NCBI GenBank assembly: GCA_964523205.1
Contig: CAZFZG010000003.1
Span: 10,719-37,482 of the forward strand
Direction of reading: 5' to 3'
From: an uncultured Chthoniobacteraceae bacterium
GTDB taxonomy: Bacteria; Verrucomicrobiota; Verrucomicrobiia; Chthoniobacterales; UBA10450
DNA length: 26,764 bases
How positions within the stretch are numbered: the first letter of the stretch is position 1; each line of letters begins with the position of its first letter. A program made the translations under genes and the position numbers. This document shows, in pieces, positions 284 to 23,494 of this stretch. The notes under the pieces are model-generated. The model saw nothing but the letters and a program-made list of their open reading frames with translations. It was not told the DNA's origin and did not search any database.

Positions 284-2077
284 ATGTATCGCACCACCGG
301 TTGCAACTCCCTTCGCAAGAGCGACATCGGCAAGGAAGCCACCCTTGCCGGATGGGTCCACGTGTCGCGCGATCACGGCGGCGTCATTTTCATAGATCTG
401 CGCGATCGCGAAGGAATTACCCAGGTCGTATTTCGGCCGGAGGAAAATGCCGCCCTCGCGAAGGAGGCGCACGGTTTGCGTAGCGAGGATGTGATTCAGG
501 TTTCGGGCAAAATCGCCGCGCGCGTGCCGGGAACGGAAAATTCAAAGCTAACAACCGGCGACATCGAATTGATTCCGTCTCAGTTGAAAATTCTGAATCG
601 AACGGCCGATTTGCCTTTTCCGATCGACGCCGAGATTCACAACGAAGATTTGCGGCTGACTTATCGCTATTACGATCTACGCCGGCCGGAACTGTACCGG
701 AATCTGAAAATTCGTCATCGCGCGGCCAAGGCGACCCGCGATTATCTCGACTCGCAAGGTTACCTCGAAATCGAGACGCCGATTTTGTCTAAGAGCACGC
801 CGGAAGGCGCGCGGGACTTTTTGGTTCCCAGCCGCTTGATGCCGGGAAAATTCTTTGCGCTGCCGCAGGCACCGCAGCAATACAAGCAACTTTTACAGGT
901 TGCGGGCGTGGAAAAATATTTCCAGATCGCGAAATGTTTTCGAGACGAGGATTTGCGAGCCGACCGCCAACCGGAGTTCACTCAAATCGACATCGAGGCG
1001 TCGTTCGTTCGGCCGGAGGACATTTTCTCACTGACCGAAGGAATGCTGGCGGCGGTTTTCAAGGCGACAAGAGGGATCGACATCAAGACGCCGTTTGATC
1101 GGCTGACTTATCGCGAAGCGGTTAGCCGTTTCGGCAGCGACAAGCCTGACCGTCGGTTCGGAATGGAACTTGTCGACCTTAGCGACGATTTCCGTCGGAG
1201 CAGTTTCAAAGTCTTCCGGGGCGCGCTGGATGCCGGCGGCGTGGTGAAAGCAATCAACGCCAAGAATTTCGCTTCGCTCACGATCGGCCAAAGCGACGAG
1301 CTGACCGAGATTGCCAAGACATTCGGCGCGAAGGGCCTCGCGTTTATCAAGGTTGAGCAGGGGGAATGGAAATCGCCAATTGTTAAATTCTTCAGCGATA
1401 CGGAGAAAGCCGCCTTGAAATCGAAACTAAAAATCGAAGAAGGCGATCTGATCCTGTTTGCAGCCGACAAATGGGACATTGCCTGTGAAGTGCTTGGCCG
1501 AATTCGGCTGAGAGTAGCGGCGTATCAAGACCTGATTGCTAAAGGCCAGTCCGGCTCGGACATTTGGGACTTTTTGTGGGTCTACGATTTCCCATTGCTG
1601 CTTTGGAGCGCAGAAGAAAACAAATGGAACGCAATGCATCATCCGTTCACGCGCCCGAAAGCCGAAGACGTGGCGCTGCTCGACGATAAAACGAAGTTTC
1701 CCGAGATCCGGGCCGAAGCCTATGACGTTGTGCTTAACGGCGTCGAGATTGGCGGCGGCAGCATTCGAATTCACGAGCCGCCGTTACAGGACAAGATGTT
1801 CGGAGTTCTCGGCATCAGCCCCGAAGATCGACAAAAAATGTTCGGGCATCTGCTGCGTGCGCTGCGACTCGGCGCGCCGCCGCATGGCGGGATCGCGTTT
1901 GGGCTCGATCGCTTGGTGATGTTGATCTGCGGCGCCGAAACGATCCGTGAGGTGATGGCGTTCCCCAAGAATAATCGCATGTTGGACTTGATGTCGCACT
2001 CACCGTCCGATGTCGATCCTCGCCAGTTGCGCGAGCTTGGAATCAAGCTGGCCAGCGAAAAGAAGGCGAAATCCTAA
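284..2077 (+). CDS. aspS: Aspartate--tRNA ligase, bacterial type with GAD insert, probably non-discriminating (Asp/Asn)
   Basis: OB-fold RDHGGVIFIDLRD, motifs ETPIL..STPEGARDF, LPQAPQQYKQLL, FRDEDLRADRQPEFTQID and motif 3 PPHGGIAFGLDRL; 597 aa. Confidence 0.98.
   Translation: MYRTTGCNSLRKSDIGKEATLAGWVHVSRDHGGVIFIDLRDREGITQVVFRPEENAALAKEAHGLRSEDVIQVSGKIAARVPGTENSKLTTGDIELIPSQLKILNRTADLPFPIDAEIHNEDLRLTYRYYDLRRPELYRNLKIRHRAAKATRDYLDSQGYLEIETPILSKSTPEGARDFLVPSRLMPGKFFALPQAPQQYKQLLQVAGVEKYFQIAKCFRDEDLRADRQPEFTQIDIEASFVRPEDIFSLTEGMLAAVFKATRGIDIKTPFDRLTYREAVSRFGSDKPDRRFGMELVDLSDDFRRSSFKVFRGALDAGGVVKAINAKNFASLTIGQSDELTEIAKTFGAKGLAFIKVEQGEWKSPIVKFFSDTEKAALKSKLKIEEGDLILFAADKWDIACEVLGRIRLRVAAYQDLIAKGQSGSDIWDFLWVYDFPLLLWSAEENKWNAMHHPFTRPKAEDVALLDDKTKFPEIRAEAYDVVLNGVEIGGGSIRIHEPPLQDKMFGVLGISPEDRQKMFGHLLRALRLGAPPHGGIAFGLDRLVMLICGAETIREVMAFPKNNRMLDLMSHSPSDVDPRQLRELGIKLASEKKAKS
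1543..1559. repeat. 17-bp dispersed motif AGGCCAGTCCGGCTCGG, copy 1 (inside aspS)
   Basis: Identical to 12055-12071 by direct reading. Confidence 0.7.
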
Positions 2078-2394
2078 TAGCCGAGCGCTTTCTTGCGTTC
2101 TGCCGCCGTTGGCAACGCTTCCTTCTTGACCGTGATTGGATCGGTGCCCGCGTCTTTGATTCGGTGAGCTTCGGTCGCGTTGAATTCGGTGTCTTTTCCG
2201 AACTCGGCCGGCAAGTCGGCCTCAGCGTAAATCGCGTGAACGGGACAGACGTCGACGCACGCAGTGCAATCGATGCATTCCTCGGGATGAATGACGAGCT
2301 GTTTCTCCATTTCGTAGAAGCACGTGACCGGACAGACTTCGACACAGTCAGTGAACTTACATCCGTTGCATTTATCAGTGACGACGTGAGCCAT
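2074..2394 (-). CDS. fdxA: 7Fe ferredoxin ([3Fe-4S]+[4Fe-4S], Azotobacter FdI/FdxA type)
   Basis: CxxCKFTDCVEVCPVTCF...IHPEECIDCTACVDVCPVHAI matches the FdI cysteine pattern, followed by a C-terminal extension. Confidence 0.92.
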   Translation of the reverse strand: MAHVVTDKCNGCKFTDCVEVCPVTCFYEMEKQLVIHPEECIDCTACVDVCPVHAIYAEADLPAEFGKDTEFNATEAHRIKDAGTDPITVKKEALPTAAERKKALGY

Positions 2395-2444
2395 AGGACT
2401 TGGTAATTGGTATGAAGGGAATCTCGCCGGTCAATTCCCGGCTT

Positions 2445-4055
2445 TCATTTAATTGAGTCGGGCGGCGGATGATGTTCGCGGCCGGTCCGGAAAAGGATCG
2501 CCACGCAGAAGGTGACGATCGTTCCAAAGCAGATCCACCACGGAAATTCGACAGCAGGCAACCAATCTGGCCTTGTGTAGGCGACCCGGCCGAAGATTCC
2601 AGCAATCGCGTTGAAGAGATTGCTGATGATTGCGACGAAGATGAATCCGATAACCATCGCGATGATGTTGCCGACGTTGCTACCACGACGTCGGGTAAAC
2701 ATTCCACAAAGAAAAACACCGAGGACTGGCCCATAAGTGTAGGCGAAGACGCTGAGGACGATCGGAATGATGCGAAGGTTCGGGTAGACAATAACCAGAT
2801 AAGAAGTGATCGACGCAACGACAATCATCAACATCGAGAACCAGATCGTGGCCCAGCGCACCGCGCGCAAGCTTTGTTCACTTGTCGATCCCGGGTTGAT
2901 ATAAGGCTCGTACCAATCGCGGGTGAAACTGGTAGCCAGCGCGTTGATTGCCGTGCTGAGCGAGCCCATTGCCGTCGCGAAAATCCCCGCGATTAACAAG
3001 CCGCGCAGACCGACGGGCATTTGGTAGAGAATGAAATGACAGAACACTTCGGGCGATTTCGGAAGATTCGGTTCGGGATGAGTTTGATAATAGGCCCAGA
3101 GCAAAATGCCGATGCTGAGAAAAGTCAGAACGATGGGAATATCAGCCAGTCCGGAAAGAACGAGCGAGCGGCGACTGCGTCGAACGTCGGGCGCGGTCAG
3201 CATGCGTTGGACCATGTCCTGATCGGTCCCGTGGGTGGCCATAGTAATGAATGTTGATCCAATGAGGCCGGCGAAAATGGTGTATTCGAGTTCGAACATG
3301 CCTTTCCATTTGTCCCAGCCGCTTTTGGCGGGATCGAGTCCCGTTGTGATGATGTCGGAGAAATGAAAACCTCCGTGGAGCTCGGCGATTTTGTGCCAAC
3401 CGCCGGGGATCGCAAAATAAAGCAGACCGAGCGCGGTTAGCGCGCTGCCGATCATGATTGAAGCTTGAATGAAATCGGTCCAGACGACGGCTTTGATTCC
3501 ACCCAGCGTGGTGTAGATCGCGGTCAGGAGAACGATGGCGATTGTCGATCCAATATAGATCCAAAGCGTCTCCGATTGGCCGGGCCGTGTGCCGGTGATC
3601 ATTTCATAGGCGAGCACGAGCGCGATAGCCGCCACGTAAAGCCGCGCGCCGGATGCGAGCACACGCGTGAACATGAAAACCGCGGAGGCGGCGTTCTTGG
3701 TGGGCACACCGAAGCGCGCGGTCAGGTATTCGTAGATCGAATAAACTTTGTAGTCGTAGTACGGCTTGATGAAGATGTAGCTCACGAGGATCCGCGCGAG
3801 AATGGTGCCGAACGCGAGCTGAACGTAAGTGTAATTGCGGAGCGCGAAACCTTCGCCGGGTGTGCCGAAAAATGTTCCAGCGCTGGTTTCGGCGGCGATG
3901 ATCGATGCCAGCACGGCCCACCATGGGATGCAGCGTCCACCGAGCGCGAAGTCGGCCAGGTTCTCTTCCTTACGCCCCATGTAGAGGCCGATTCCGATGA
4001 TGATGACGAAATAAAGAAGGAGAACTCCGCAATCGATCGCCAGCCGTGCGTCCAT
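2445..4055 (-). CDS. Sodium:solute symporter (SSS/SLC5) family transporter, substrate unknown
   Basis: 536-aa polytopic membrane protein with SSS motifs (FALGGR..PWW, AAETSAGTF.G.PG, YTTLGGIKAVVWTDFIQ, QDMVQR.L, AMGSLSTAINALATS). Confidence 0.92.
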   Translation of the reverse strand: MDARLAIDCGVLLLYFVIIIGIGLYMGRKEENLADFALGGRCIPWWAVLASIIAAETSAGTFFGTPGEGFALRNYTYVQLAFGTILARILVSYIFIKPYYDYKVYSIYEYLTARFGVPTKNAASAVFMFTRVLASGARLYVAAIALVLAYEMITGTRPGQSETLWIYIGSTIAIVLLTAIYTTLGGIKAVVWTDFIQASIMIGSALTALGLLYFAIPGGWHKIAELHGGFHFSDIITTGLDPAKSGWDKWKGMFELEYTIFAGLIGSTFITMATHGTDQDMVQRMLTAPDVRRSRRSLVLSGLADIPIVLTFLSIGILLWAYYQTHPEPNLPKSPEVFCHFILYQMPVGLRGLLIAGIFATAMGSLSTAINALATSFTRDWYEPYINPGSTSEQSLRAVRWATIWFSMLMIVVASITSYLVIVYPNLRIIPIVLSVFAYTYGPVLGVFLCGMFTRRRGSNVGNIIAMVIGFIFVAIISNLFNAIAGIFGRVAYTRPDWLPAVEFPWWICFGTIVTFCVAILFRTGREHHPPPDSIK

Positions 4056-4068
4056 GAGCGCCTACTCT

Positions 4069-4099
4069 GAATGACGAATGACGAATGTCGAATGACGAA
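4069..4099. repeat. Heptamer tandem array (GAATGAC)x4, single arm
   Basis: GAATGAC GAATGAC GAATGTC GAATGAC GAA, in the divergent SSS/OGG intergenic space. Same unit as 6829-6941. Confidence 0.85.
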
Positions 4100-4151
4100 A
4101 GAAGATGGAATACATTCTGCCCCGAATTCTCTTGAAGCAGTTCCAACGCCA

Positions 4152-5111
4152 ATGATCGCAGAAGCTCTCGTGGAAATCCCGGCCTTGGATTTCGATCTGG
4201 CGATGACGCTCGATTCCGGACAGGTCTTTCATTGGGACAAATCTGGTGACGGTTTTGTCGGAACGATTGGCGACCTGCCAATTTACCTCCAACAGTACGG
4301 AGACGTTCTGAGAACGCAGGCTGGCCCTTCAGAACTTGAGCGGTTAAACCGGTCCAGTTCTCGAAGTGCAGTCGCTCGTTACTTCGCGCTTGATCATCCG
4401 CTCGCCAAAATCTGCGCGGCGTTTCCAAACGATGCAGCTATGAATGCGGCGAGAGAGTTTTGTCGCGGCTTGCGAATCATTCGTCAGCCGAAGTGGGAAT
4501 GTCTGGCCACGTTTATTTGTTCCTCGATGAAGCAGGTCGCGCACATCCGGCAGATTTCGAAGAAGCTGCGCGAGCGCTTCGGCGAACCGCGCGACATTGG
4601 TGAATCGGTGGTGTATACATTTCCGACAACCGAAGGAATCGCCGCTTCGTCGGAAAAAGAACTTCGCAAATGCGCCCTTGGTTATAGGGCGAAGAACCTG
4701 CTGGCAACGGCGCGGCTGATCGCGAATGGCGATGTCGATCTTGAAGAGCTAGGTGCGCTTTCGGACGTCGATCTCCGTGCGCGGTTGTGCGAGCTGCCGG
4801 GCGTGGGCGCAAAGGTTGCTAATTGTGTGATGCTCTTTGCCTACGAGCGGTTACGCGCGTTTCCGATCGACGTCTGGATCGAGCGGACTCTGCGGGAAAA
4901 GTATTTTCCCCGGGCAGGAAGATTGAACGCCGCACGGCTGCGAACGTTCACAGAGACATACTTCGGAGACCATGGGGGGTACGCCCAGCAATATCTGTTT
5001 CATCACGCGCGGAAAACAAAAACATTGGAGGGACGGGCTCCGTCCCGTCCGAAGAAGTTTGGGACGACACGGAGGTCGTCCCTCCATGACAAAGGTTCTG
5101 GCGTGCGATAA
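4152..5111 (+). CDS. 8-oxoguanine DNA glycosylase/AP lyase (OGG1-like, HhH-GPD superfamily)
   Basis: N-domain FDLAMTLDSGQVFHW, GLRIIRQPKWECLATFICS, HhH LPGVGAKVANC with catalytic Lys, FPIDVWI with catalytic Asp, GYAQQYLF. Start set at ATG 4152 because the longer start (4071) reads through the heptamer array. Confidence 0.9.
   Translation: MIAEALVEIPALDFDLAMTLDSGQVFHWDKSGDGFVGTIGDLPIYLQQYGDVLRTQAGPSELERLNRSSSRSAVARYFALDHPLAKICAAFPNDAAMNAAREFCRGLRIIRQPKWECLATFICSSMKQVAHIRQISKKLRERFGEPRDIGESVVYTFPTTEGIAASSEKELRKCALGYRAKNLLATARLIANGDVDLEELGALSDVDLRARLCELPGVGAKVANCVMLFAYERLRAFPIDVWIERTLREKYFPRAGRLNAARLRTFTETYFGDHGGYAQQYLFHHARKTKTLEGRAPSRPKKFGTTRRSSLHDKGSGVR
5026..5086. repeat. GGAG-tagged REP-like doublet (two inverted hairpin units) inside the 3' end of the OGG gene
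   Basis: TGGAG-GGACGGG-CTCCGT-CCCGTCC, a 10-nt spacer, then the inverted unit TGGAG-GGACGAC-CTCCGT-GTCGTCC on the minus strand. Terminal 10-bp inverted repeat is perfect. Confidence 0.85.
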
Positions 5112-5129
5112 TGTTTTGATTTCGAATTT

Positions 5130-6092
5130 ATGACGACGGCGGAATTCATCATCGGCAGTTCGGCAGACGACGCCGAGGAGCGAAAGCAGGAGGCACGCAA
5201 AGTTCTGGTCGCGCTTGTCGTCGCGATCATCATCCATCTCCTGATTGGATACTCTCTCGCCGTCTACGGCGGTTTGCTGTATAGGCCGTTCGCCGTCGCC
5301 GAAGAAGAGAAACCGGTTGAGCTCAGCTTTGTCGATCTGGCAACGCCGGCGCCGAAGAACACGATGTTTGTTCCGAACGACGAATCGAAGCAGACCGAAG
5401 CGCCGAAGGATAAGACCTTCGAATCAAATGCGAACTCGATCGCTGCAAGCTCACAACCTGCGACAGGTACCTTGCCCTTGCCGTCACAGGAAGGTAGCGA
5501 GCGGACCACGCTCAATTTTGATTCGCACGCCGCGACAGTGGCGAGCCAAGGCGCGCAAGCAAAACCAAGCATTGCACCGCAGCAATCGGCTTCGCCGCAA
5601 CCGAGCACACAGCCAACACCGGTTTCGAAGTCGGAAGAGTTTGCCATGCTGACGTCAAGTCCAACTCCGCCGCCGGTTGCCAGCACTCCACAGCAGCCCA
5701 GATCGGTTTACCAACCTTACCAAGAAAAAACTCGCCTGGCCGGGGCGATCACAAACCGCGGTATGTCGTCGGTGAATGCTGTCGGCACTCCGTTAGGTCG
5801 TTACCAAAAGGCCATCTACGACGCAATCGGGTCCCACTGGTACGCCTACATGGAACAAAAAGGCGATCTGGCGAGCCTCGGAACAGTTCGGGTCACGTTT
5901 GTAATTGACCGTAGTGGCCGGGTCCGGAATCTGAAGGTCGTTTCGAACGATTCGAACGAAGCGTTTGCCAACGTCTCCCTCCAAGCCATTCTTGATGCCA
6001 AGTTCCCACCCATTCCGGAGGAACTCGCAGATTCGCTGCCTCCCGAAGGGCTCGATCAAGAGATTAGCTTTATAAATTTCCCAAACAGGTAA
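5130..6092 (+). CDS. TonB-family energy transducer
   Basis: N-terminal TM helix ending in His (AIIIH), Pro/Ser/Gln-rich linker, TonB_C-like domain (GTVRVTFVIDRSGRVRNLKVV...AILDAKFPPIP). Followed by exbB- and exbD-like genes. Confidence 0.82.
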   Translation: MTTAEFIIGSSADDAEERKQEARKVLVALVVAIIIHLLIGYSLAVYGGLLYRPFAVAEEEKPVELSFVDLATPAPKNTMFVPNDESKQTEAPKDKTFESNANSIAASSQPATGTLPLPSQEGSERTTLNFDSHAATVASQGAQAKPSIAPQQSASPQPSTQPTPVSKSEEFAMLTSSPTPPPVASTPQQPRSVYQPYQEKTRLAGAITNRGMSSVNAVGTPLGRYQKAIYDAIGSHWYAYMEQKGDLASLGTVRVTFVIDRSGRVRNLKVVSNDSNEAFANVSLQAILDAKFPPIPEELADSLPPEGLDQEISFINFPNR

Positions 6093-6104
6093 TCTTGCGC
6101 TGAA

Positions 6105-6824
6105 ATGCTCAACGTTCTCGAAACCATCGCCGGATTTTTTGCCAAGGGCGGCGTTTTCATGTGGCCGTTGTTGGTCTGCTCGATCGTTTCACTAACGGTG
6201 ATTATTTTGCGCACCCTGGCGCTGCGGGAAAAAAATGTGTTACCGCTCACCATCGAGAGCGAAATGGAACGCCTCGCGCCGGGCGGAAACCCGGAACGAC
6301 TTTTTCGCCTCGCGCAGCAGGATGGCTCGTCTCTCGCGCGTATTGTACGGGTGGCCCTGGCTCATTTGCGCTGGCCGCGCTCGGAGAACGTGGAGACGGT
6401 CCAAACCCGCGCCCGTCACGAAATGGTGCGCCTTGAGCGCGGACTGGTGGTGCTGGAGGTGATCATCGGTATCGCACCGTTGCTCGGATTGATCGGAACC
6501 GTGTCTGGCCTCGTGCACGTTTTCGCCAGTCTCGGTGTCAGCGCCGGCTCGGCGGATCCTAAAATGATTGCCCGCGGAATTTCCGAAGCGCTCAATTGCA
6601 CCGTCTTCGGTCTGGGCATCGCGGTGCCGAGCTTGATTGCATTCGTTTACTTTTCCAAAAAGGTCGAGGTGATGTCGGTGGAAATGGAGTCGCTGGTGAC
6701 GGATTTACTTTCGAAATGTTATTACGGCCGTGTCCTCAGCGCTCGCAAGGCGCAAATCCAAGCCCCTTCCCAACCGATTACTCCGGCTCAGCCAGCGACG
6801 CCAGAGATCGCGCCGATGGCGTGA
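6105..6824 (+). CDS. exbB: MotA/TolQ/ExbB proton channel protein
   Basis: GGVFMWPL, LEVIIGIAPLLGLIGTVSG and GISEALNCTVFGL.IA family motifs. exbB versus tolQ cannot be resolved from sequence alone. Confidence 0.88.
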   Translation: MLNVLETIAGFFAKGGVFMWPLLVCSIVSLTVIILRTLALREKNVLPLTIESEMERLAPGGNPERLFRLAQQDGSSLARIVRVALAHLRWPRSENVETVQTRARHEMVRLERGLVVLEVIIGIAPLLGLIGTVSGLVHVFASLGVSAGSADPKMIARGISEALNCTVFGLGIAVPSLIAFVYFSKKVEVMSVEMESLVTDLLSKCYYGRVLSARKAQIQAPSQPITPAQPATPEIAPMA

Positions 6825-6828
6825 TCGA

Positions 6829-6941
6829 AATGACGAAGCACGAATCTCGAATGTCGAAACAAGTTCGAATGTTCAAATGACGAAGCGCTCCCTGTTAGAA
6901 CCGTTCTGCAATTCGTCATTCGTCATTCGTGATTCGTCATT
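6829..6941. repeat. Inverted pair of heptamer arrays: (AATGACG)-like left arm, (ATTCGTC)-like right arm
   Basis: Left arm AATGACG AAGCACG AATCTCG AATGTCG...AATGACG. Right arm ATTCGTC ATTCGTC ATTCGTG ATTCGTC ATT. Fills the exbB-exbD gap. Confidence 0.88.
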
Positions 6942-6947
6942 GGTTTC

Positions 6948-7355
6948 ATGAAGTTCGCGGTCCGGAAGCGACGAGCACCGTCGATCATTATCGTTTCATT
7001 GGTGGATATCCTGACGATCCTCCTGATTTTCTTTGTCGTTTCGACCACGTTCAGAAAGGATCAGCCGCAAGTGCAGATCAATTTGCCGGAATCGAAAACC
7101 GCGACGACCGCGCCGGCCGAACTCGAGCACGCCCTCCTGACCGTGAGCGAGAACGACGAGATCAAACTCGATGGGCAAACGGTCGCGGTGGAGGATTTGG
7201 AAAGCGCGGTGCGAAATTTGTCAGAAACGCGCCGCAGCTCGCTCGCATTGCAAGCCGACAAGAAGGCGTCGTTCGGAATCATCGTTAAAGTGATGGATGC
7301 GTTAAAGTTGGCAGGGGTGAAGAATTTGCCGGCGTTCACTCGTGGCGAAAAATGA
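6948..7355 (+). CDS. exbD: Biopolymer transporter ExbD/TolR
   Basis: SLVDILTILLIFFVVST (TM helix with conserved Asp), INLPES, L.ADKKASFG.IVKVMDALK.AG. Confidence 0.9.
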   Translation: MKFAVRKRRAPSIIIVSLVDILTILLIFFVVSTTFRKDQPQVQINLPESKTATTAPAELEHALLTVSENDEIKLDGQTVAVEDLESAVRNLSETRRSSLALQADKKASFGIIVKVMDALKLAGVKNLPAFTRGEK

Positions 7356-7951
7356 AGTTGTCCATCTTGCAATACGGCGACCCCATTTTGCGGGCGAAGG
7401 GAAAAGCGATCCGGCCGCTACCGGACGACCGGATTCGCCAGCTGGCGCAGAATATGATCGAGACAATGCACGCGGCCAGCGGCGTGGGTTTGGCGGCGCA
7501 ACAAATCGGCGAACCGATTCAGCTTACCGTTCTTGATGTTTCGCAGGTCGAGGATCGACCGACGGAGATGAAGTTGAATGGGAAGGATGTTGATCCAAAG
7601 ATGGTGATGCCGCTGGTGTTGGTTAACCCCCAAGTCGACCCGGGCAGCGAGACGGAAATGGGAACGGAAGGTTGTCTCAGTTTTCCGGAGATCTCGGGGG
7701 AGATCGAGCGGGCGAAATCAATCACGGTTCGCGCGCAAAACCTGGATGGCGACCCAATCCAAATCGAAACGGTTGGGTTCCTGGCCAGGGCGATCCAGCA
7801 TGAGGTCGATCATCTCAATGGAATCCTGTTTATCGACCGAATGAGCTCGGCGGTGAAGACAAGTTTGTCGAGCAAGTTGAAACGGCTGCAGAAGGAAACG
7901 CAGCGCGGCGCGAAACATCGACAACGTGCCGTAGCGGAGACGACGTTGTAG
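7352..7951 (+). CDS. def: Peptide deformylase
   Basis: All three motifs present: GVGLAAQQIG, EGCLS, QHEVDHL. ATGA overlap with the exbD stop. Confidence 0.97.
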   Translation: MKLSILQYGDPILRAKGKAIRPLPDDRIRQLAQNMIETMHAASGVGLAAQQIGEPIQLTVLDVSQVEDRPTEMKLNGKDVDPKMVMPLVLVNPQVDPGSETEMGTEGCLSFPEISGEIERAKSITVRAQNLDGDPIQIETVGFLARAIQHEVDHLNGILFIDRMSSAVKTSLSSKLKRLQKETQRGAKHRQRAVAETTL

Positions 7952-8001
7952 CCGCGGCCCTGCGGGCCGTTTCGGATGACCCGCCACGGGCGGGGGCTAC
8001 A
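7947..8001. repeat. GTAG-tagged REP-like doublet between convergent genes
   Basis: TGTAGCC-G-CGGCCC TGC GGGCCG ... CCCGCC ACG GGCGGG-GGCTACA: two 6-bp hairpins inside a TGTAGCC/GGCTACA inverted pair. Confidence 0.85.
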
Positions 8002-8002
8002 C

Positions 8003-8521
8003 TTACAGCGCTTTGTAATCGACGGAGATCGTGCGGAAGACGAGCTGATCGTGTTGGGCCGAAAAATAAAAGAGCTCGAGCATCGTCGCGCCGATGGTCC
8101 ATTGATAGCCAACCAGGGTTTGAATGACGTCGGAGTCGGTGTCGCGCGTGCGCGAGACTAATTTGCCTGTTCCGTACTTGCCATCGAAGTAACGGCGAAT
8201 TTCTCCCATTCGTTCGTTGTAGCGTTCGATTGACCAGTCGGGATATTCGTATTGGAGTTCGACGCCGAAGAGTGCGCTGCCTTTAAAAGTAAACAGGGTC
8301 CGCTTCAAACCAGGATGGACCAGGCCTTCCACCGTCCAGATTTCACGGTTTTCTTTTTTTTCGCGGGATAAGATTGTCGCCTTCGCGCCCCTTAGGACTG
8401 CTTCCACGCGCGACATTGGATCGTTCCAACGAAATCCAAACGGCGGATTCAATTCTTCAGCGCCGGAGATCGTTGAAGCGGCAATCAACAGCAAGAAAAG
8501 TGAAATCAGGATGCGCGACAT
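8003..8521 (-). CDS. Hypothetical secreted protein
   Basis: Signal-peptide-like MSRILISLFLLLIAASTISG followed by a globular-looking domain (PPFGFRWND...GVELQY). Start set at ATG 8521; the longer 8599 start adds a non-signal segment. Confidence 0.75.
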   Translation of the reverse strand: MSRILISLFLLLIAASTISGAEELNPPFGFRWNDPMSRVEAVLRGAKATILSREKKENREIWTVEGLVHPGLKRTLFTFKGSALFGVELQYEYPDWSIERYNERMGEIRRYFDGKYGTGKLVSRTRDTDSDVIQTLVGYQWTIGATMLELFYFSAQHDQLVFRTISVDYKAL

Positions 8522-8703
8522 ACTCGATGGAGGGCGCAGTGCCACATTACCAGTTGGCTTGAGCAAAGAAAATACTGATGGTGGCAGGCCGTAGTGCATT
8601 GCGCGCGCGGAGAGAAAAATTTGATTGCTTGGGACACGCTCGTTTTGCGTTTTCAGTCAAGAATTTTTTGACCGAAAAAGAAAAATAAAGTTCAGATTTT
8701 TTC

Positions 8704-8732
8704 TTGTCGATCTTGCGCGCGATTTCTAGTCT
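8704..8732 (+). promoter_or_regulatory. Putative sigma70-type dnaA promoter
   Basis: TTGTCG (8704-8709), 17-bp spacer, TAGTCT (8727-8732), preceded by A/T tracts resembling an UP element. Confidence 0.5.
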
Positions 8733-8765
8733 CAAGCCCGCGGCAGGGGACGAAAGGCAGGCGCG

Positions 8766-8797
8766 TGTGAATAAGATGTGAACATGTCTGAGAAAAA
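8766..8797 (-). promoter_or_regulatory. Array of three co-oriented DnaA-box-like sites
   Basis: Minus-strand reads are TTATTCACA (8766-8774, exact TTWTNCACA), ATGTTCACA (8777-8785, 2 mismatches) and TTTTTCTCA (8789-8797, 1 mismatch). Confidence 0.55.
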
Positions 8798-9055
8798 TTG
8801 ATTCCCTAGAATGAGCAAGGCCTTAACCTCATCAAACAGAAAATTTAACGGAGATTTAAATCCTGAGCCGCAACGGATATCTGATTGGCAGCGAAGAGCG
8901 CAAATTCCCTCGTATTTTGGCAATTTTGGCTTTTTTAACCGGCTTTTGATGCTTCGGATGCAGGCGCGCGTCACCAGGCGTCGCCTCCGTCAGATGCATT
9001 CGTTCCCTGTCATAACCGCCTTTATGGCGATTGTGTAACACTGTTAACAACTCCC

Positions 9056-10402
9056 ATGGACGAGAAATGTACTCAGCTTTGGCAAAAACTCTCGGCCGCG
9101 CTCAAGCCGCACGTCAGCGCCGATACATTTAAGCGTTGGTTCTCCGCAGTTGAATTGGCTGGAGTCACTCCGAAAACGCTCAGTTTTCGCGTACCCAACA
9201 ACATCTACCAATACTGGATCGAGAGTAACCACATGGCTGCGCTGGAGGGTGCGGTGCTGACTGCGCTGGGCGAGCCGCGCGAAATCAAATTCATCTCGTC
9301 CGAAACGCCCGTTGAAACCAGCGAAGCCATTTCAGCCGTGAAAGAAAGTGAATCGAGCCGCGAAGCCAGGCCCAGCAGTTCCTTCGGGCTCAATCCGCGC
9401 AACACCTTTGAATCGTTCGTGGTCGGGCCGAATAACGAGATCGCGCACGCGGCCAGCCTGGCTGTCGCGCAAGCACCGGCCCGCACCTACAATCCGCTTT
9501 TCATTTACGGCGGCGTCGGCCTGGGTAAGACCCACCTGATGCAGGCAATTGGCCAGTACGCGCTCGCGAAAAAGAAAAACACCAAGGTGATTTATCTTTC
9601 GAGCGAGCTCTTCATCAACGAGTTCATCGACGCGATCCAGCACAACAACTTGGTCAAGTTTCGCAAGCGCTATCGCCAGGCCGATTTGCTCTGTATCGAC
9701 GACATCCAATTCCTGGCCGGCAAGGAACGCTCGCAGGAGGAGTTTTTCCACACCTTCAACACGCTCTTTGATGGCCACAAACAGATTGTCCTCTCATGCG
9801 ATCGGCCCGCGTCGGAAATTGCCAACCTCGAGCATCGGCTGGTGTCGCGGTTTGAATGGGGACTGACCGCTGAGCTTCAGCCGCCCGCCATCGAAACCCG
9901 GCTCGCCATTTTGCGCAAAAAAGCGCGGGGCATGCAGATCAAACTGCCGGACGAGACCTTTGAATTTCTGGCCAACCGCATCCGCAGCAACGTTCGTCGG
10001 CTGGAAGGTGCCCTCATGCGGGTGGCGTCGTTCGCATCATTAAGCGGGAAGGAACTTACCCGGGAAGTGATCGAGCATTTGCTCAAGGACATTCTCCAGG
10101 AAGAAGCGCGAGCCTCGATTACGATCGAACAAATTCAGCGCAAGGTGGCCGAGCATTTCGACGTGCGCCTGGCCGACATGACGAGCAAGCGCCGCCCCGC
10201 CTCGATTGCTTTTCCGCGACAGGTAGCAATGTATCTGGCGCGCGAGCTAACCAAATCTTCGCTCAACGAAATCGGCGACGCCTTCGGCGGGCGCGATCAC
10301 GGCACGGTCCTGCACGCGTGCAAACTCGTGAAAAGGCGGATGAAAGAGCAGGACAACATCCGGCAAACGATTTCGTTCATCGACAGCTCGCTGCAACGCT
10401 GA
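9056..10402 (+). CDS. dnaA: Chromosomal replication initiator DnaA
   Basis: [17 protein letters not shown] (Walker A), LLCIDDIQF (Walker B), [19 protein letters not shown], domain IV RQVAMYL...[12 protein letters not shown]. Confidence 0.99.
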   Translation: [448 protein letters not shown]

Positions 10403-10438
10403 GTGTACTGGTCGACCCGAGCGCACAAGAGTTTGCGG

Positions 10439-10466
10439 TTGCCGAATAAGAGCCCCCGCCTAACAT
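10439..10466 (+). promoter_or_regulatory. Possible internal dnaN promoter
   Basis: TTGCCG, 16-bp spacer, TAACAT, located 19 bp before the dnaN ATG. Confidence 0.3.
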
Positions 10467-10485
10467 CTTAGCCAGATTCGTTCTC

Positions 10486-11583
10486 ATGAAGTTTAGCGCC
10501 ACCAAAGAAAAGCTGCTGGAAGGTTTGCAACAGGTCCAAAACGTCGTTAGCACTCGCACGACACTGCCGATTCTTTCAAACGTGTTGCTCCAGGCGAGCG
10601 ACGGTACCGTGCATTTGACTACTACCGATCTCGACGTGGGCGTGCGGGGTAGTTTCGAGGCTGACGTGGAAAAGGAAGGTGCGACCACTCTTCCTGCGCG
10701 CCGGCTGTTCAACATCGTTCGTGAATTGCCCGCGAGCGAAATCCAGATCGATGTCGATGGCAAAAATACGGCCTCAATCCGCAGCGGCCAGAGCTTTTTC
10801 AAAATCCTTGGATTGCCGGAGGAAGAATTTCCGCCGCTACCGAAATTCGAAGACGCCAAGGTGGTGACAATTCGCCAGAAAGAGTTGCGCGACGGTTTGC
10901 GCAAAACTTCCTACGCGATCTCTACCGACGAAACTCGTTACGTGCTCAACGGCCTGCTCTTCAGCTTCAAAGACAACAAGCTCACTCTCGTAGCCACGGA
11001 CGGACGCCGCCTGGCCATGGTCGATATTGAATTGGAAATTCCGCGCAGCCAGGAGACCGATATCATCGTTCCGACCAAAGCGGTCACGGAGCTGCAGCGA
11101 CTTTTGACTGACGATGGCGGCGTCAAAGTAAGCGTGGCCAGCGGCCAGATAGCCTTCGATCTAAACAAGACGCTGCTGGTCTCGAAGTTAATCGAAGGGA
11201 ATTATCCGAACTACAAGCAGGTAATTCCGGGCGAAGCGAAAGAGCGAGTCACCCTTGAGCGGGAGACATTCCTCAACTCCCTGCGGCGCGTTTCCCTTTT
11301 GGCGAGCGAGAAATCCAACTCGATCAAACTTAATTTCAGCAAGAACAACATCGACATCACTGCTAACACGCCGGAGGTCGGCGAAGCCAAGGAATCGCTG
11401 CCGGTGCAATACAAGGGCCGCGATTTTTCGATTGCCTTCAATCCGGAGTTCCTGATGGCGCCATTGCGCAACCTGACCGAAGACGAAGTCTTTCTCGACC
11501 TGATCGACGAGATGAGTCCTGGCGTTTTGAAAATCCAGACACCGTTTCTCTACGTGCTGATGCCGATGCGCATCAGTTCCTAG
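10486..11583 (+). CDS. dnaN: DNA polymerase III beta sliding clamp
   Basis: RTTLPILSNVLL, DETRYVLNG, VATDGRRLA, SKLIEGNYPNY and YVLMPMR; directly downstream of dnaA. Confidence 0.99.
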   Translation: MKFSATKEKLLEGLQQVQNVVSTRTTLPILSNVLLQASDGTVHLTTTDLDVGVRGSFEADVEKEGATTLPARRLFNIVRELPASEIQIDVDGKNTASIRSGQSFFKILGLPEEEFPPLPKFEDAKVVTIRQKELRDGLRKTSYAISTDETRYVLNGLLFSFKDNKLTLVATDGRRLAMVDIELEIPRSQETDIIVPTKAVTELQRLLTDDGGVKVSVASGQIAFDLNKTLLVSKLIEGNYPNYKQVIPGEAKERVTLERETFLNSLRRVSLLASEKSNSIKLNFSKNNIDITANTPEVGEAKESLPVQYKGRDFSIAFNPEFLMAPLRNLTEDEVFLDLIDEMSPGVLKIQTPFLYVLMPMRISS

Positions 11584-12569
11584 ATTGCTATCTTTTGTCC
11601 CAACGCATCTGTGCGAGGGATATTGTGGGTCAACGCCTGATCGAGCGCCTCGCGAACAAGATCGACACGGAGTTGTGGGAGGTCTTTGTCAGGAGCCCGA
11701 ATCACCCGCACGTTTTCGTTTATCGGCGCCCAAACCGCCGGATCCGTCGGCCCGAACAACAGAATCGACTTTGCGCCTGCCGCCGCCGCCAGGTGTGAAA
11801 TGCCGCTGTCGTGGCCGATGAAAATCGTTTTCTGAAGGACTGCAGCCAAAATCGGTAGTGGCAGCGATTTCCCGAACCGAACGCGGGGAGTTTGCCAGGT
11901 AGACTCGAGCTTCTTGGTCTGGGCTTGGTCAGCTTCACCTGAAACAATTAGGAGCGAGCCAGTGTGAGTTCGGAGGAAATGATTTCCCAGATTGATCCAG
12001 TTTTGAAGCGGCCAGTTCTTCTTATCGCTTCCGCTTCCTGGATGAAACGCGACTAGGCCAGTCCGGCTCGGGCTCGGCGTGTCCAACCCGGCGAGAAATT
12101 CCCTGGCCTGATGGCGATCTGCTTCCGATGGAAAAAGTTGCGCCGCAAAATCTGAAATCGGGCGGCCAAGTTCTTCGATTGGTCGCGCCAGCTGTCGGGT
12201 CGCGTGCGTGTGATTGTCGATCTTGGCTGGACCTCGGAATATTTTCTTCGCGCCACTTCTTCTCAAATTGTGTTCGAAAAGCAAATCTGGATCGTAGAGA
12301 TAGCTGATTATGACGTCGAACGCGGCAAAGTAATTTGCAAGCTCAGGCGGCAGATCAGGGTCTTTGGCAAAGAATCTCGAAAGTTGCGCCGATTCGATAG
12401 AGCGGACCCTGTTGGCGTAAAATCGTTTTTCGGCCAGAATCGCGACGTGTTTGTATCCGAGAATTTCAATGTGCGCGTTAGGATGCGCGTCGCGCAGTGC
12501 CTTCATTGCCGGCAAAGTCAGGATGAAATCGCCGATCGCGCCGCCGCGAATCACCAAGAGTCGATTCAA
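11580..12569 (-). CDS. Glycosyltransferase family 9 (ADP-heptose:LPS heptosyltransferase-like)
   Basis: LVIRGGAIGDFILTLP, HPGSG..KKNWP, IGHDSGISHLAAA, LFGPTDP. Confidence 0.92.
   Translation of the reverse strand: MNRLLVIRGGAIGDFILTLPAMKALRDAHPNAHIEILGYKHVAILAEKRFYANRVRSIESAQLSRFFAKDPDLPPELANYFAAFDVIISYLYDPDLLFEHNLRRSGAKKIFRGPAKIDNHTHATRQLARPIEELGRPISDFAAQLFPSEADRHQAREFLAGLDTPSPSRTGLVAFHPGSGSDKKNWPLQNWINLGNHFLRTHTGSLLIVSGEADQAQTKKLESTWQTPRVRFGKSLPLPILAAVLQKTIFIGHDSGISHLAAAAGAKSILLFGPTDPAVWAPINENVRVIRAPDKDLPQLRVDLVREALDQALTHNIPRTDALGQKIAI
12055..12071. repeat. 17-bp dispersed motif AGGCCAGTCCGGCTCGG, copy 2 (inside GT9 gene)
   Basis: Identical to 1543-1559. Followed by a tandem second GGCTCG. 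Confidence 0.7.
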
Positions 12570-14603: not shown

Positions 14604-15473
14604 ATGAAGGAGAATGCGCCGGCAATCGGCATTATTGGGGGAAGCGGATTGTATCAAATGGAGCAGTTGCGCGATGCGACCGAGCACAGGATGGACACGC
14701 CATTCGGTTCGCCCTCCGACGTGTTGATCGGAGGAACAATCAGCGGGCGGCAGGTCTACTTTTTGCCGCGGCACGGCAGGGGCCACCGAATTCTGCCGCA
14801 TGAACTGAATCATCGCGCGAATATTTACGCGCTGCGTTTGCTCAACGTTCGGTGGATTATCGCCGTCACCGCGGTCGGCAGTTTGCAGGAAAAATACAAA
14901 CCGCGTGACATCCTGTTGCCCTCGCAGTTTTACGACCGGACAAGTTTACGTGCGACTCACACGTTCTTCGGGGAGGGGATCGCGGCGCACATATCGTTCG
15001 CCGAACCGATTAGCATTCGTTTGCGGAACTTGCTCGCCGAATCCGGCAAAAAGATCGGTGTCGCCATTCACAATGGCGGCACCTATGTGAATATGGACGG
15101 CCCGGCATTTTCAACACGGGCCGAATCTGAGTTGAACCGGCGCAACGGTTTTGACGTGATTGGAATGACGAATCTGCCGGAAGCGAAATTGGCCCGCGAG
15201 GCGGAGATCGCCTTGGCCACACTGGCGATGATCACTGATTACGATTGCTGGAAGGTGGACGAAGAGCCCGTTTCAGCGCGAACCGTCTTCGGCCATTTAA
15301 CCGCCAATGCCGAGGCCGCGAAAAACGTGTTAATCGAGGCGATCCCCCGAATTCCGACCGAGCCCGACTGGCCTGAGCATTCAGCGCTGGACACAGCTAT
15401 GACAACAGACCGAAAGCTTTGGCCAAAGGCGACCGTAGAAAAGCTGGGTCCGATTTTGAGCCGGTTTTTGTAA
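14604..15473 (+). CDS. mtnP: S-methyl-5'-thioadenosine phosphorylase (MTAP)
   Basis: IGIIGGSGLY, TPFGSPS, FLPRHG..H, N.RANIYAL, GPAFSTRAES, VIGMTNLPEAKLAREAE, TDYDCW. Confidence 0.93.
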   Translation: MKENAPAIGIIGGSGLYQMEQLRDATEHRMDTPFGSPSDVLIGGTISGRQVYFLPRHGRGHRILPHELNHRANIYALRLLNVRWIIAVTAVGSLQEKYKPRDILLPSQFYDRTSLRATHTFFGEGIAAHISFAEPISIRLRNLLAESGKKIGVAIHNGGTYVNMDGPAFSTRAESELNRRNGFDVIGMTNLPEAKLAREAEIALATLAMITDYDCWKVDEEPVSARTVFGHLTANAEAAKNVLIEAIPRIPTEPDWPEHSALDTAMTTDRKLWPKATVEKLGPILSRFL

Positions 15474-21892: not shown

Positions 21893-23494
21893 ATGGCCGT
21901 TTCACGCAAAGACAAACCGGATCTGCAGAAAAAGGTGCACGAAGTGCCGCACAAACCGGGTGTGTACTTGATGCGCGACCGATTCAATCGTGTCATCTAT
22001 GTCGGTAAAGCCCGCGATCTCCGAAAGCGGGTCAGTTCATATTTCTTGCCGTCGAAATTGGCCCAGGCTGATTTGAAAACCCGCGCCATGCTCGAGGCGA
22101 CCTGGGACTTCGAAACCCACGTCGTCCGGAGCGAGGCAGAATCGGTTTTGCTGGAGGGCAAGCTGATTAAAGAATACCGGCCGCGTTACAACATTTCCTT
22201 CCGCGACGACAAGCGATTCTTGCTGGTGAAAGTGGATTTATCAGAAGAATGGCCGCGCTTTCGACTGACGCGTCTTAAGAAGAACGACACCGCGCGGTAC
22301 TTTGGACCGTTTGCAGCGGCGGGCGCGCTGCGGCAAACGCTCAATCTGATGCGAAAGAAATTTGGCGTGCTCACCTTTGGTCGCGGGGCGCCGACTGAAC
22401 GCGAGCTCAAATCTTCAACCTACCAGGTGCCAGTGCGATTGAGTGAAATTACCGCCGAGCAATATCACGACCGTGTGATGCAGGCCTGCGAATTTTTGGA
22501 GGGGCAATCGCGCGAGATGATCGAGATGTTGGAAGCAGAGATGCGCAAGGCCGCGGGGAAAATGGATTTCGAGAAAGCCGCCGAACTGCGCAACATGGTT
22601 GACGACGTCCGGCAGACCACGAGATCAACCCGCCGTTTCACCCGCGGAAGTTTGCCGAGCGTGATTGACCCCTTGGCGGATGTGCAGGCGCTGGGTGACG
22701 CGTTGCAACTGCCGCGCCTGCCGCGAGTCATGGAGTGCTTCGATATCTCGAACATTTCCACAACCCACGTGGTTGCTTCTATGGTCTGTTTTCGCGACGG
22801 CGTGCCGGACAAGAATTGCTACCGGCGTTATCGAGTGCGGACCGTTGAAGGCCAGGACGACTTCGCGAGCATGGCCGAAGTGGTCAGGCGACGCTACTCG
22901 CGTGTTCTTCTGACAATTTCGGAAACCGGAATCCGGAATGCGGAACGCGAAGATGTCGATCTTTCACCGGCTCACTCGCAAGAGAACGCGTTCGACACCG
23001 CGCGACGACTGGAAAACTATCCGCAATCCGAGATCCGGAATCCGCATTTCGTGCCGGTTCGTCTGCCGGACTTAGTCATTGTCGATGGCGGCAAGGGACA
23101 ACTCTCGTCGGCTTGTCGTGAGTTACAGCGACTGGGGTTGCACGATTTGCCAATTATCGGTTTGGCGAAAGAGCATGAGGAGATTTATCGGCCGGGACAG
23201 GCGATGCCTTTCCAGTTGCCGCCGGATTCGGGCGCTCTCCATTTGCTTCAACGAATTCGCGATGAGGCGCACCGGTTCGCGAACGCCTATCATCAGTTGC
23301 TCCTCAAGAAACGGATCGACGAAAGTATCCTCGATGATTGTTTGGGCGTGAGCCAGAACCGGAAGAATTTGCTCCTGCGCAAATTTGGTTCGGTCAATCG
23401 ATTGCGGAAAGCGAGCGTCGAGCAAATCGCAGCGACTGAAGGAATCGGTCCGAAGCTCGCCGAGGAAGTGCATCGCTTTCTCCAGAGCCATTGA
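21893..23494 (+). CDS. uvrC: Excinuclease ABC subunit C
   Basis: GIY-YIG (PGVYLM...IYVGKA..LRKRVSSYF), UVR domain, ECFDIS, DGGKGQL, RIRDEAHRFA and C-terminal HhH. The GTG 21809 extension reads through the REP and was rejected. Confidence 0.97.
   Translation: MAVSRKDKPDLQKKVHEVPHKPGVYLMRDRFNRVIYVGKARDLRKRVSSYFLPSKLAQADLKTRAMLEATWDFETHVVRSEAESVLLEGKLIKEYRPRYNISFRDDKRFLLVKVDLSEEWPRFRLTRLKKNDTARYFGPFAAAGALRQTLNLMRKKFGVLTFGRGAPTERELKSSTYQVPVRLSEITAEQYHDRVMQACEFLEGQSREMIEMLEAEMRKAAGKMDFEKAAELRNMVDDVRQTTRSTRRFTRGSLPSVIDPLADVQALGDALQLPRLPRVMECFDISNISTTHVVASMVCFRDGVPDKNCYRRYRVRTVEGQDDFASMAEVVRRRYSRVLLTISETGIRNAEREDVDLSPAHSQENAFDTARRLENYPQSEIRNPHFVPVRLPDLVIVDGGKGQLSSACRELQRLGLHDLPIIGLAKEHEEIYRPGQAMPFQLPPDSGALHLLQRIRDEAHRFANAYHQLLLKKRIDESILDDCLGVSQNRKNLLLRKFGSVNRLRKASVEQIAATEGIGPKLAEEVHRFLQSH
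22916..23050. repeat. Inverted pair of heptamer arrays in frame inside uvrC
   Basis: Left arm ATTTCGG AAACCGG AATCCGG AATGCGG AACGCGA. Right arm ATCCGCA ATCCGAG ATCCGGA ATCCGCA TTTC. 68-bp centre. Confidence 0.8.

Follow-up and report, generated by a model that had tools for sequence, protein, structure and literature searches.

Repeat copies in the aspS and GT9 genes

The window, a 26,764-nt stretch of DNA, belongs to a 2.66-Mb Chthoniobacterales (Udaeobacter-like) MAG. Based on Pfam signatures, it harbours aspS, coding for aspartyl-tRNA synthetase (AspRS; 284-2077, + strand), a glycosyltransferase family 9 (GT9) gene (11580-12569, - strand) and a gene for an mtnP-like phosphorylase (PNP_UDP_1; 14604-15473, + strand). 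The 17-mer AGGCCAGTCCGGCTCGG is found within the first two genes, with exact copies at 1543-1559 and 12055-12071, both on the + strand, and a 16/17 match is present in the third at 15358-15374 on the - strand. None of 100 shuffles generated a match to AGGCCAGTCCGGCTCGG. Translation gave KGQSGSD for AspRS, SPSRTG for GT9 and EPDWP for mtnP. Thus, the positions and the use of three different reading frames are as described in the original prediction. A peptide-level explanation, Walker-A or other, was discarded because the motif copies use every reading frame and lie on either strand.

The 17-mer is the core of a unit of ~21 nt, A-R-T-GCCA-GTCCG-GCT-CGGAC-Y, composed of a short 5' tail (A-R-T-GCCA) followed by a hairpin with a 5-bp stem and a 3-nt loop (GTCCG-GCT-CGGAC). 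The sequence logo of the copies is informative from -2 to +18 only and flat beyond. The period of a tandem pair is 18 nt, the same as the net insert, and about 21 nt are conserved, which defines a hairpin element of 18 to 21 bases overall. Compensated stems were found among the copies, namely CTCCG/CGGAG, ATCCG/CGGAT and GTGCG/CGCAC. The aspS copy extends from 1542 to 1562 (+ strand), with a core 15-mer at 1545-1559 and the stem-loop at 1549-1561. The GT9 copy, on the + strand and hence opposite to the gene, corresponds to an 18-bp insertion at 12056-12073 that directly precedes LVAFHPGSG in the protein. The mtnP match, considered here only because it had been named in the original prediction, does not coincide with an insertion.

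Copy number and distribution

The 15-mer core occurs 34 times without mismatch in the MAG and 65 times if one mismatch is allowed, far more than two or three copies. The expected count for a 15-mer is far below 1, and a reversed control pattern had 0 matches in the same genome. All 24 genomes of the genus contain the motif, as do 115 of the 151 genomes of the family, with 0 to 130 copies each and a very uneven distribution within a genus. Outside of the family, no multi-copy occurrence was found among 401 sampled Verrucomicrobiota genomes. The density of the motif is approximately one per 40-80 kb. The genomes compared are all MAGs, from many independent studies and including near-complete assemblies of 5-10 contigs, and the reading frames are always intact at the motif copies. 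A search with the Rfam 15 covariance models revealed no family, only one chance miRNA match (E=0.42), and our literature search for the exact motif found no paper carrying that sequence.

Thirty-eight of the 65 copies are located in the intergenic 16.7% of the genome (3.5-fold enrichment, p=3e-14), and ~19-27 are within real genes. Compared with intergenic DNA drawn at random, the flanks of the copies form more stable folds (p=1.6e-4). The copies are found preferentially in the loop or at the centre of a hairpin that was already there, such as REP-like palindromes, heptamer-repeat hairpins, terminator-like stems or the loop of an element of their own kind. Classical, GGTAG-headed REP-like palindromes are also present in the genome and are invaded by the motif, and the empty-site paralogs of such composites are shorter by 15-19 nt. 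The orientation of the copies shows no bias relative to the local GC skew (29 vs 36 copies), which is weak in this genome, and we found none relative to gene direction. Copies are similarly on mixed strands in the large contigs of two other genomes, G003 and G010. A replication- or transcription-oriented signal was thus rejected, which agrees with the initial view that the motif is not Chi/KOPS-like.

Presence and absence at orthologous sites

Nine of the ten coding copies tested are at indel-polymorphic sites. In the genes for GT9, the 2-oxoglutarate dehydrogenase E1 component, SucC and a DUF2851 protein, orthologs differ at the same codons by the presence or absence of a clean 18-nt insert, and we found ragged length differences of +9 to +15 nt in those for AspRS, Fmt and ADH. 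Such differences support the first of two options initially envisaged, a micro-element of 15-18 bp inserting in frame into protein loops. The GT9 insertion is specific to this species, with an alignment gap of exactly 18 nt in every one of the 14 orthologs from sister species that cover this position. The additional 18 nt of E1 are present in six of 23 species, and the SucC element is likewise carried by six of 23. Orthologous presence/absence of the element was further detected at sites in a permease gene and in the DUF2851 gene.

The AspRS site is a hot spot. Among the 24 species of the genus, it has a 39-nt short form in 11 and is filled with the element or its derivatives, over 48-93 nt, in the other 13. 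The protein encoded in the window is three to four residues longer than the short form of the 11 sister species, and relative to a solved AspRS structure (PDB 4wj3) it has six extra residues precisely opposite GQSGSD. The proposal that this segment and the GT9 loop before HPG are longer than usual was thus borne out in alignments with relatives, the motif coinciding with a clean 18-bp indel in GT9 and a ragged one in AspRS. The CCGAGC duplication reported next to the GT9 copy corresponds to the 3' end of the element abutting a similar target sequence. As for mtnP, its 24 orthologs in the genus show no indel at this position. The peptide under the match, (A)EPDWPEH, is conserved, and the ortholog of genome G018 carries the exact 15-mer. 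Judging from the alignment, this copy is a coding look-alike rather than an insertion.

The insertion junctions are somewhat ragged, with two to six target bases replaced and a net gain of +9 to +19. Comparison of filled and empty sites revealed neither target-site duplications nor, apart from the internal 5-bp stem, any terminal inverted repeats. The ~9 gene insertion sites yielded no common target motif; many of them seem to have a weak short palindrome or hairpin, such as the palindrome that was replaced in Fmt.

The presence/absence pattern conflicts with the species tree. On a four-protein tree, the minimum numbers of changes per site are 7, 5, 3 and 1, each change being a gain or a loss, since precise loss is not distinguishable from gain on the available tree. 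Across species, the unit is near-identical, while its flanks are ~82-85% identical. The filled alleles show no excess flank similarity, their ratio of near to far flank identity being equal to that of the empty alleles, so that recombination tracts were rejected as the source of the patchy distribution.

The element also inserts into itself. A compensated variant is nested in a parent copy in 11 of its 27 copies (~16 if degenerate parents are included), with a net gain of +18, and at independent loci it occupies one fixed position within the parent hairpin. A second element, called M2, was found inside or beside copies of the motif.

Comparison with known short repeats

Elhai and colleagues reportedly described in 2008 (Genome Res 18:1484, as cited in PMC3116915 and PMC5861425) the small dispersed repeats SDR1-8 of Nostocales cyanobacteria, which are said to be 21-27 nt long and dispersed, with mobility inferred from presence/absence at conserved sites. 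We know of no mobilizing enzyme for the SDRs. Like the element described here, they are very short, dispersed and lineage-restricted, and they insert into other repeats and palindromes; in a passage of one article, HIP1 is given as a possible insertion site of SDR5 (PMC5861425). The unit of our element is below ~30 nt with unconserved flanks, it forms a lineage-restricted multi-copy family, its presence varies at orthologous or paralogous sites, and it nests in REP loops and in itself. Nevertheless, it is found in a different phylum, has a presumably unrelated sequence and is shorter (18 nt net). It also differs in being documented as in-frame, six-codon insertions in housekeeping genes, with homoplastic gain or loss at the same codons, self-nesting at a fixed position and occurrence in viral contigs. 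Homology to the published SDR1-8 is unlikely because of the different phylum. The best reading is that of a very small non-autonomous mobile element that would be analogous to the cyanobacterial SDRs.

REP sequences and REPINs are extragenic repeats of 20-40 nt, usually inverted doublets flanking a RAYT gene, and they are mobilized by RAYT (TnpA-REP), an HUH Y1 transposase. The new element is similarly a short, dispersed, hairpin-forming repeat with a conserved 5' tail beside the stem and compensatory stem changes. Unlike REPs, it is also intragenic and mostly single, it has no linkage with a Y1 gene, and its head is A-R-T-GCCA next to a 5-bp stem, rather than GTAG with a palindrome of 10-15 bp. 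Homologs of Y1/HUH transposases (PF01797) are common both within and outside the motif-bearing lineage, including in motif-free families; for three of the genomes that carry the motif, no such homolog was found, and only one motif copy is within 1.5 kb of a Y1 gene. With neither correlation nor adjacency, a link to these transposases was rejected. The subterminal hairpins of IS200/IS605 elements are comparable in that a small hairpin and adjacent bases are recognized, and no target duplication is generated. A lagging-strand single-stranded DNA mechanism would predict a strand bias relative to the GC skew, but the element has no replication-strand bias. We found no full-length, transposase-carrying element bearing this hairpin.

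MITEs such as Correia/NEMIS, RUP and BOX are at least 100 nt long, with terminal inverted repeats and target-site duplications. The element is likewise non-autonomous, multi-copy and mostly intergenic, and like MITEs it may be co-transcribed or translated, but it has neither their length nor their terminal inverted repeats or target-site duplications.

Interpretation and alternative explanations

Based on these sequence comparisons, we consider it likely that a very small mobile DNA element, non-autonomous in nature, has the motif as its core. Its repeated gain or loss at identical positions, in many cases as a clean, in-frame insertion of 18 bases in an essential gene, makes it look like a mobile element that is among the smallest seen in bacteria. 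The element is probably selfish and of no use to its host. A trans-acting enzyme might recognize the hairpin and copy or move the unit, with single-stranded or cruciform hairpin loops as presumed targets. Since the net insert of 18 nt corresponds to six codons, copies that land in tolerant protein loops would keep the frame and could thereby persist in housekeeping genes. Our search for a mobilizing gene yielded none.

We also considered other explanations. The motif might be a selected functional site that is bound by a DNA- or RNA-binding protein of the host, or that acts in hairpin loops as a signal for processing or termination, spread by selection rather than by selfish mobility. Its strong conservation across species relative to the flanks, the compensatory changes that maintain the stem, and its frequent location in loops of long hairpins, some of them followed by T-runs, are consistent with this idea. 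We nevertheless find it unlikely, as species of a single genus have between 0 and 130 copies, which point either way with respect to genes and transcription, some of them within housekeeping ORFs whose sister-species sites are empty. Self-nesting has no obvious functional logic, Rfam has no matching family, and a mechanism for inserting 18 nt would still be required. Alternatively, repair or replication might write in the unit with no dedicated enzyme, by capture of an abundant short nucleic acid or by template switching at broken or stalled hairpins, i.e. micro-homology-mediated, templated insertion. This would fit the ragged junctions with few replaced target bases, the lack of target-site duplications or terminal inverted repeats, the insertion at fragile sites such as the loops of hairpins and the centres of palindromes, and the similarity between the GT9 target and the abutting element end. 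However, independent loci show, with high reproducibility, the same inserted sequence at the same position of the parent hairpin, the net size is constant at 18 nt at many sites, and the element is confined to a single family of bacteria and the phages presumed to infect it, which makes this scenario rather improbable.

The second option initially envisaged was a DNA-uptake or other genome-wide signal, built up by mutation and biased recombination and tolerated in codons. Like the DUS of Neisseria and the USS of Pasteurellaceae, the motif is an over-represented oligomer that is specific to a lineage and is present in coding DNA and hairpins as well; its copies lie on either strand and are read in more than one frame. 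DUS and USS have cores of 9-12 nt, are present at ~1 per kb in proportion to coding DNA and arise by substitution, whereas the element is rare (~1 per 40 kb in this genome), enriched outside genes and acquired by insertion. Furthermore, a much stronger candidate is present in these genomes, the separate 10-mer AAGATCGACA, with 715 copies in this genome and 155-1470 per related genome, spread in proportion to coding DNA. Unlike the 17-mer, AAGATCGACA fits the role of an uptake-type signal, and we regard such a role for the 17-mer as very improbable. Finally, chance, a codon-usage coincidence or an assembly artefact can practically be dismissed. The mtnP copy does appear to be a coding coincidence on a conserved peptide, but for every other copy this reading is already refuted by the negligible expected count, the empty control and the recurrence of the motif, with intact frames, in MAGs of independent origins.

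AAGATCGACA is not supported as an insertion target of the element, with 6 of 65 copies for 3.2 expected, a non-significant difference. The SucC and DUF2851 insertion sites abut AAGATCGACA.

The mobile-element reading can be extended, if only tentatively. The 18-nt hairpin might be a complete transposable unit that homes into DNA hairpin loops, including those of its own copies, via a putative structure-specific enzyme of host or phage origin. Being six codons long, the unit might colonize essential genes and generate loop-length variation in conserved proteins throughout the Udaeobacter relatives, a major lineage of soil bacteria within the Verrucomicrobia. If so, no smaller transposable unit would have been described, and a new mechanism of insertion would be indicated.

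To our knowledge, the case for very small mobile repeats has so far essentially rested on one cyanobacterial study. The element would represent a second, independent system of this kind, in an abundant, uncultured soil lineage. The comparative evidence is unusually clean: in essential genes, filled and empty alleles differ by exactly 18 nt, the same codons were hit repeatedly, and self-nesting takes place at a fixed position. It suggests a route by which selfish DNA can make loop insertions in conserved proteins such as AspRS, SucC, 2-oxoglutarate dehydrogenase and Fmt. As the copy number ranges from 0 to 130 over ~150 sequenced relatives, a search for the enzyme by phylogenetic profiling is directly feasible. 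The element also accounts for contig breaks at its sites in MAGs.

Occurrence in viral contigs

The motif, with the same 18-nt unit, is also carried by unrelated viral contigs, in hairpin loops, and it might serve as a marker to link phage contigs to their hosts. These contigs have no nucleotide relatedness to the genome analysed here and share one protein match with it.

A dispersed hairpin unit of about 18 nucleotides

Searching the window confirmed the 17-mer of the original prediction as exact copies on the + strand at 1543-1559 and 12055-12071, and its 16/17 copy on the − strand at 15358-15374; shuffled versions of the window gave zero matches. The three host genes code for AspRS, a family-9 glycosyltransferase (GT9) and a PNP_UDP_1 phosphorylase (originally called mtnP). 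The window corresponds to C3:10719-37482 of a MAG of 2.66 Mb (G000; 325 contigs, 84% complete, 55% GC), whose relatives, as named by AspRS homologs, are Verrucomicrobiota of the Chthoniobacterales, near Candidatus Udaeobacter. All genomes compared, denoted by G-numbers, are MAGs.

The genome-wide count that the original prediction had proposed gave 34 exact copies of the 15-mer core, GCCAGTCCGGCTCGG, and 65 copies within one mismatch, with a chance expectation far below 1 and 0 matches to a reversed control pattern. Counted position by position, information is confined to −2..+18, with none in the flanks beyond. The consensus, A-R-T-GCCA-GTCCG-GCT-CGGAC-Y, folds as a 5-bp stem with a 3-nt loop and a short tail in front, and pairing is kept in the two-sided stem variants CTCCG/CGGAG (found twice), ATCCG/CGGAT and GTGCG/CGCAC. 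Contig C24 carries two neighbouring copies with 18-nt spacing.

Coding copies at indel sites

The motif-hosting coding loci are genuine genes according to Pfam. As predicted, the GT9 loop is longer than usual: every one of the 14 sister-species orthologs that cover the site has an exact, clean 18-nt gap opposite its insert, SPSRTG ahead of LVAFHPGSG. The AspRS segment, also predicted to be long, has a 6-residue gap opposite GQSGSD in the solved AspRS 4wj3; 11 species have a short segment of 39 nt there, and the motif or its derivatives (48-93 nt) are found in 13. In-frame insertion therefore holds for these two genes, but not for mtnP. None of 24 mtnP orthologs shows an indel and the match falls on a conserved EPDWPEH peptide, so that this copy is a coding look-alike.

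Other genes have similar sites. The 2-oxoglutarate dehydrogenase E1 gene shows a clean 18-nt indel: 17 species have the empty site and 6 the filled one (with the element). The SucC site is empty in 13 species; 5 species have the motif, 1 has the motif with a second hairpin element, M2, 3 have M2 alone and 1 has a larger insert. G000 and G019 have filled DUF2851 and amino-acid permease sites and G001 doubly filled ones; the rest of the compared species have no motif there. Fmt and Zn-ADH each show a difference of +15, and only this species has the motif there; the Fmt copy takes the place of a 7-bp-stem palindrome seen in the orthologs. A site in an MFS transporter gene is polymorphic as well.

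At or near the aspS motif site, the assemblies of G004, G024, G002 and G014 end in contig breaks (residues ~390-490) and the gene at G010:C2:511231-513016 is frameshifted. Micro-repeats probably account for broken contigs and for apparent pseudogenes in this lineage's MAGs.

Hairpin contexts and nesting

By a crude gene call with a codon model, 16.7% of the genome is either non-coding or lies no more than 60 nt from the 5' end of an ORF, and this share contains 38 of the 65 copies (binomial p=3e-14). Long hairpins of unrelated sequence, including GGTAG-headed REP-like palindromes and hairpins with heptamer-repeat arms, contain or adjoin the intergenic copies. Folded with the motif taken out, the flanks of these copies are more stable than random 90-mers from intergenic DNA (-28.8 vs -23.6 kcal/mol, p=1.6e-4), whereas those of coding copies fold no differently from random coding DNA. 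REP-like composites also occur without the motif, 15-19 nt shorter and with a few junction bases replaced. These composites (G000 C16:4561-4665, C19, C58, C50, C177, C182 and C108; loci L186, L187, L190, L192, L196 and L197) are bounded by GGTAG...CTACC and comprise two palindromes, GGCGGTTC-N-GAACCGCC and GGCGATTGA-N-TCAATCGCC, each type present in ~35 copies, with and without inserted motif. In the first bases of G000 C104, at the contig boundary, a motif copy lies flush against the 3' end of a tRNA gene.

Copies of the unit are also nested in one another. A nested 20-nt copy with the compensated stem GTGCG/CGCAC was found at one fixed position of the parent hairpin, between GCCAGTCC and CTCGGAC (net gain 18 nt), in AspRS of G003, G006 and G011 and, in G001, in the genes for DUF2851 and the permease; at these loci other species have the simple parent only. 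Across five genomes, 11 of 27 distinct copies of this variant are nested by a strict test, and ~5 further ones lie in degenerate parents. Since parent copies cover only ~0.03% of a genome, this nesting is targeted.

M2, of ~35 nt and ending in GAGTCCGTCC-NNNN-GGCGGAC, has its stem and part of its tail in common with the inverted motif. It reaches 0-13 copies per genome (control count 0), at G000 C5:30267, C19:1729, C46:2302 and C88:1630 among others. It uses the same SucC hot spot (G016, G005, G020 and G019), and in aspS of G021 (L018) it lies inverted within the parent loop.

Taxonomic range and viral copies

Exact copies number 6-62 per genome in 24/24 other genomes searched from the genus. 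In the family, the motif occurs in 115 of 151 genomes and 31 of 36 genera at 0-130 copies, very unevenly inside genera: genus g23 alone covers 0 to 130. Fifteen other families of the order have zero copies apart from one single hit, and in a phylum sample of 401 genomes the motif is multi-copy in this family only. These tallies take in the unpublished genomes G005, G043 and G055, on which the conclusions do not depend.

The exact 17-mer is also present in 35 stretches (29 contigs) of a viral collection, several with 2-4 copies. Here too the copies occupy hairpin loops; the hairpins are unrelated and in some cases a T-run follows. The contigs show no nucleotide similarity to this genome. Motif density on viral contigs (L264/L271, a single contig with 4 copies; L275-L277; L268; L278) reaches ~1 copy/10 kb, often within terminator-like hairpin loops. 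The motif might serve as a host-linking marker for viral contigs.

Gain and loss of the unit

On a maximum-likelihood tree of 22 species (four concatenated proteins, 1540 columns, insert columns removed), whose four genes themselves host motif sites, the minimum numbers of state changes are 7 for AspRS, 5 for SucC, 3 for E1 and 1 for GT9. All three polymorphic sites fail a pairwise, tree-independent four-gamete test. Over 90 nt on either side, filled alleles are no more similar than empty ones (near/far identity ratio 1.035 vs 1.050 for E1 and 1.004 vs 1.004 for SucC), and therefore transferred alleles fail to explain the patchy pattern. The unit is identical or nearly so between species, with flanking codons merely ~82-85% identical. 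The simplest readings are repeated insertion at one and the same position, precise excision, or a combination of these; gain and loss cannot be separated in the present data, in which site changes are deduced by comparison.

Nature of the element

The element is a lineage-restricted, structured unit of ~18 nt whose gains or losses recur at defined positions; it favours hairpin loops, its own included, and is tolerated in frame within proteins. A putative trans-acting enzyme is probably responsible: it would recognise the hairpin, then move or copy the unit. Y1/HUH transposases, the obvious candidates, were rejected as the mobiliser; their presence does not correlate with the motif and their genes do not flank it. 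Insertion templated by repair or replication, to which ragged junctions and the absence of target duplications would be suited, seems improbable, and we give hardly more credit to a selected binding or processing site. Sequence conservation and stem covariation fit such a site, but the range of 0-130 copies, the neutral orientation, the polymorphic copies within housekeeping genes and the self-nesting do not. In line with the prediction that the motif is not Chi/KOPS-like, its orientation follows neither local GC skew (29 vs 36) nor gene direction (26 vs 39), and is mixed on large contigs of near-complete relatives.

The original prediction had offered either an in-frame micro-element or a DUS-like signal. 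The 18-nt indels in GT9 and E1 favour the former; the latter is very unlikely, as the same genomes hold another motif, AAGATCGACA, that better fits this role. With 715 copies in this genome, 88% of them inside ORFs, which equals the coding fraction, AAGATCGACA has the behaviour of a genome-wide signal, of the DNA-uptake type or similar. It favours certain reading frames, has unconserved flanks and lacks GC-skew bias, and it reaches 155-1470 copies per genome across the genus vs 0-19 in the order's other families. The window has 11 copies vs 0.11 expected (1824, 4733, 8705, 11658, 12215, 13840, 14574, 20220, 21853, 22954 and 25514; 9/11 on the − strand). The motif-bearing viral contigs are devoid of it.

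The element does not show the features that define REP/RAYT systems, MITEs, uptake sequences or oriented signals. Its sequence was found in no paper by our literature search, and Rfam has no model for it. The nearest precedent, cited in PMC3116915 and PMC5861425, is a class of small dispersed repeats in Nostocales (Elhai et al. 2008). The element shares the operational features of this class, being small, dispersed, nested and set in hairpins, with both filled and empty sites. It differs in its phylum, its sequence, its smaller size, the documented six-codon inserts in essential genes, the repeated, homoplastic use of one codon position and the viral-contig copies.

Gene invasion by repeats seems common in this lineage, a general picture that the heptamer arrays of UvrC fit. 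The UvrC gene contains arrays of CCGGAAT-type 7-bp repeats (window 22916-23050), and its insert holds the palindrome AAGATGTCGATCTT, the one that Fmt orthologs have where G000 has the motif. GAATGAC and ATTCGTC heptamer arrays are found elsewhere, at window 4069-4099 and 6911-6941.
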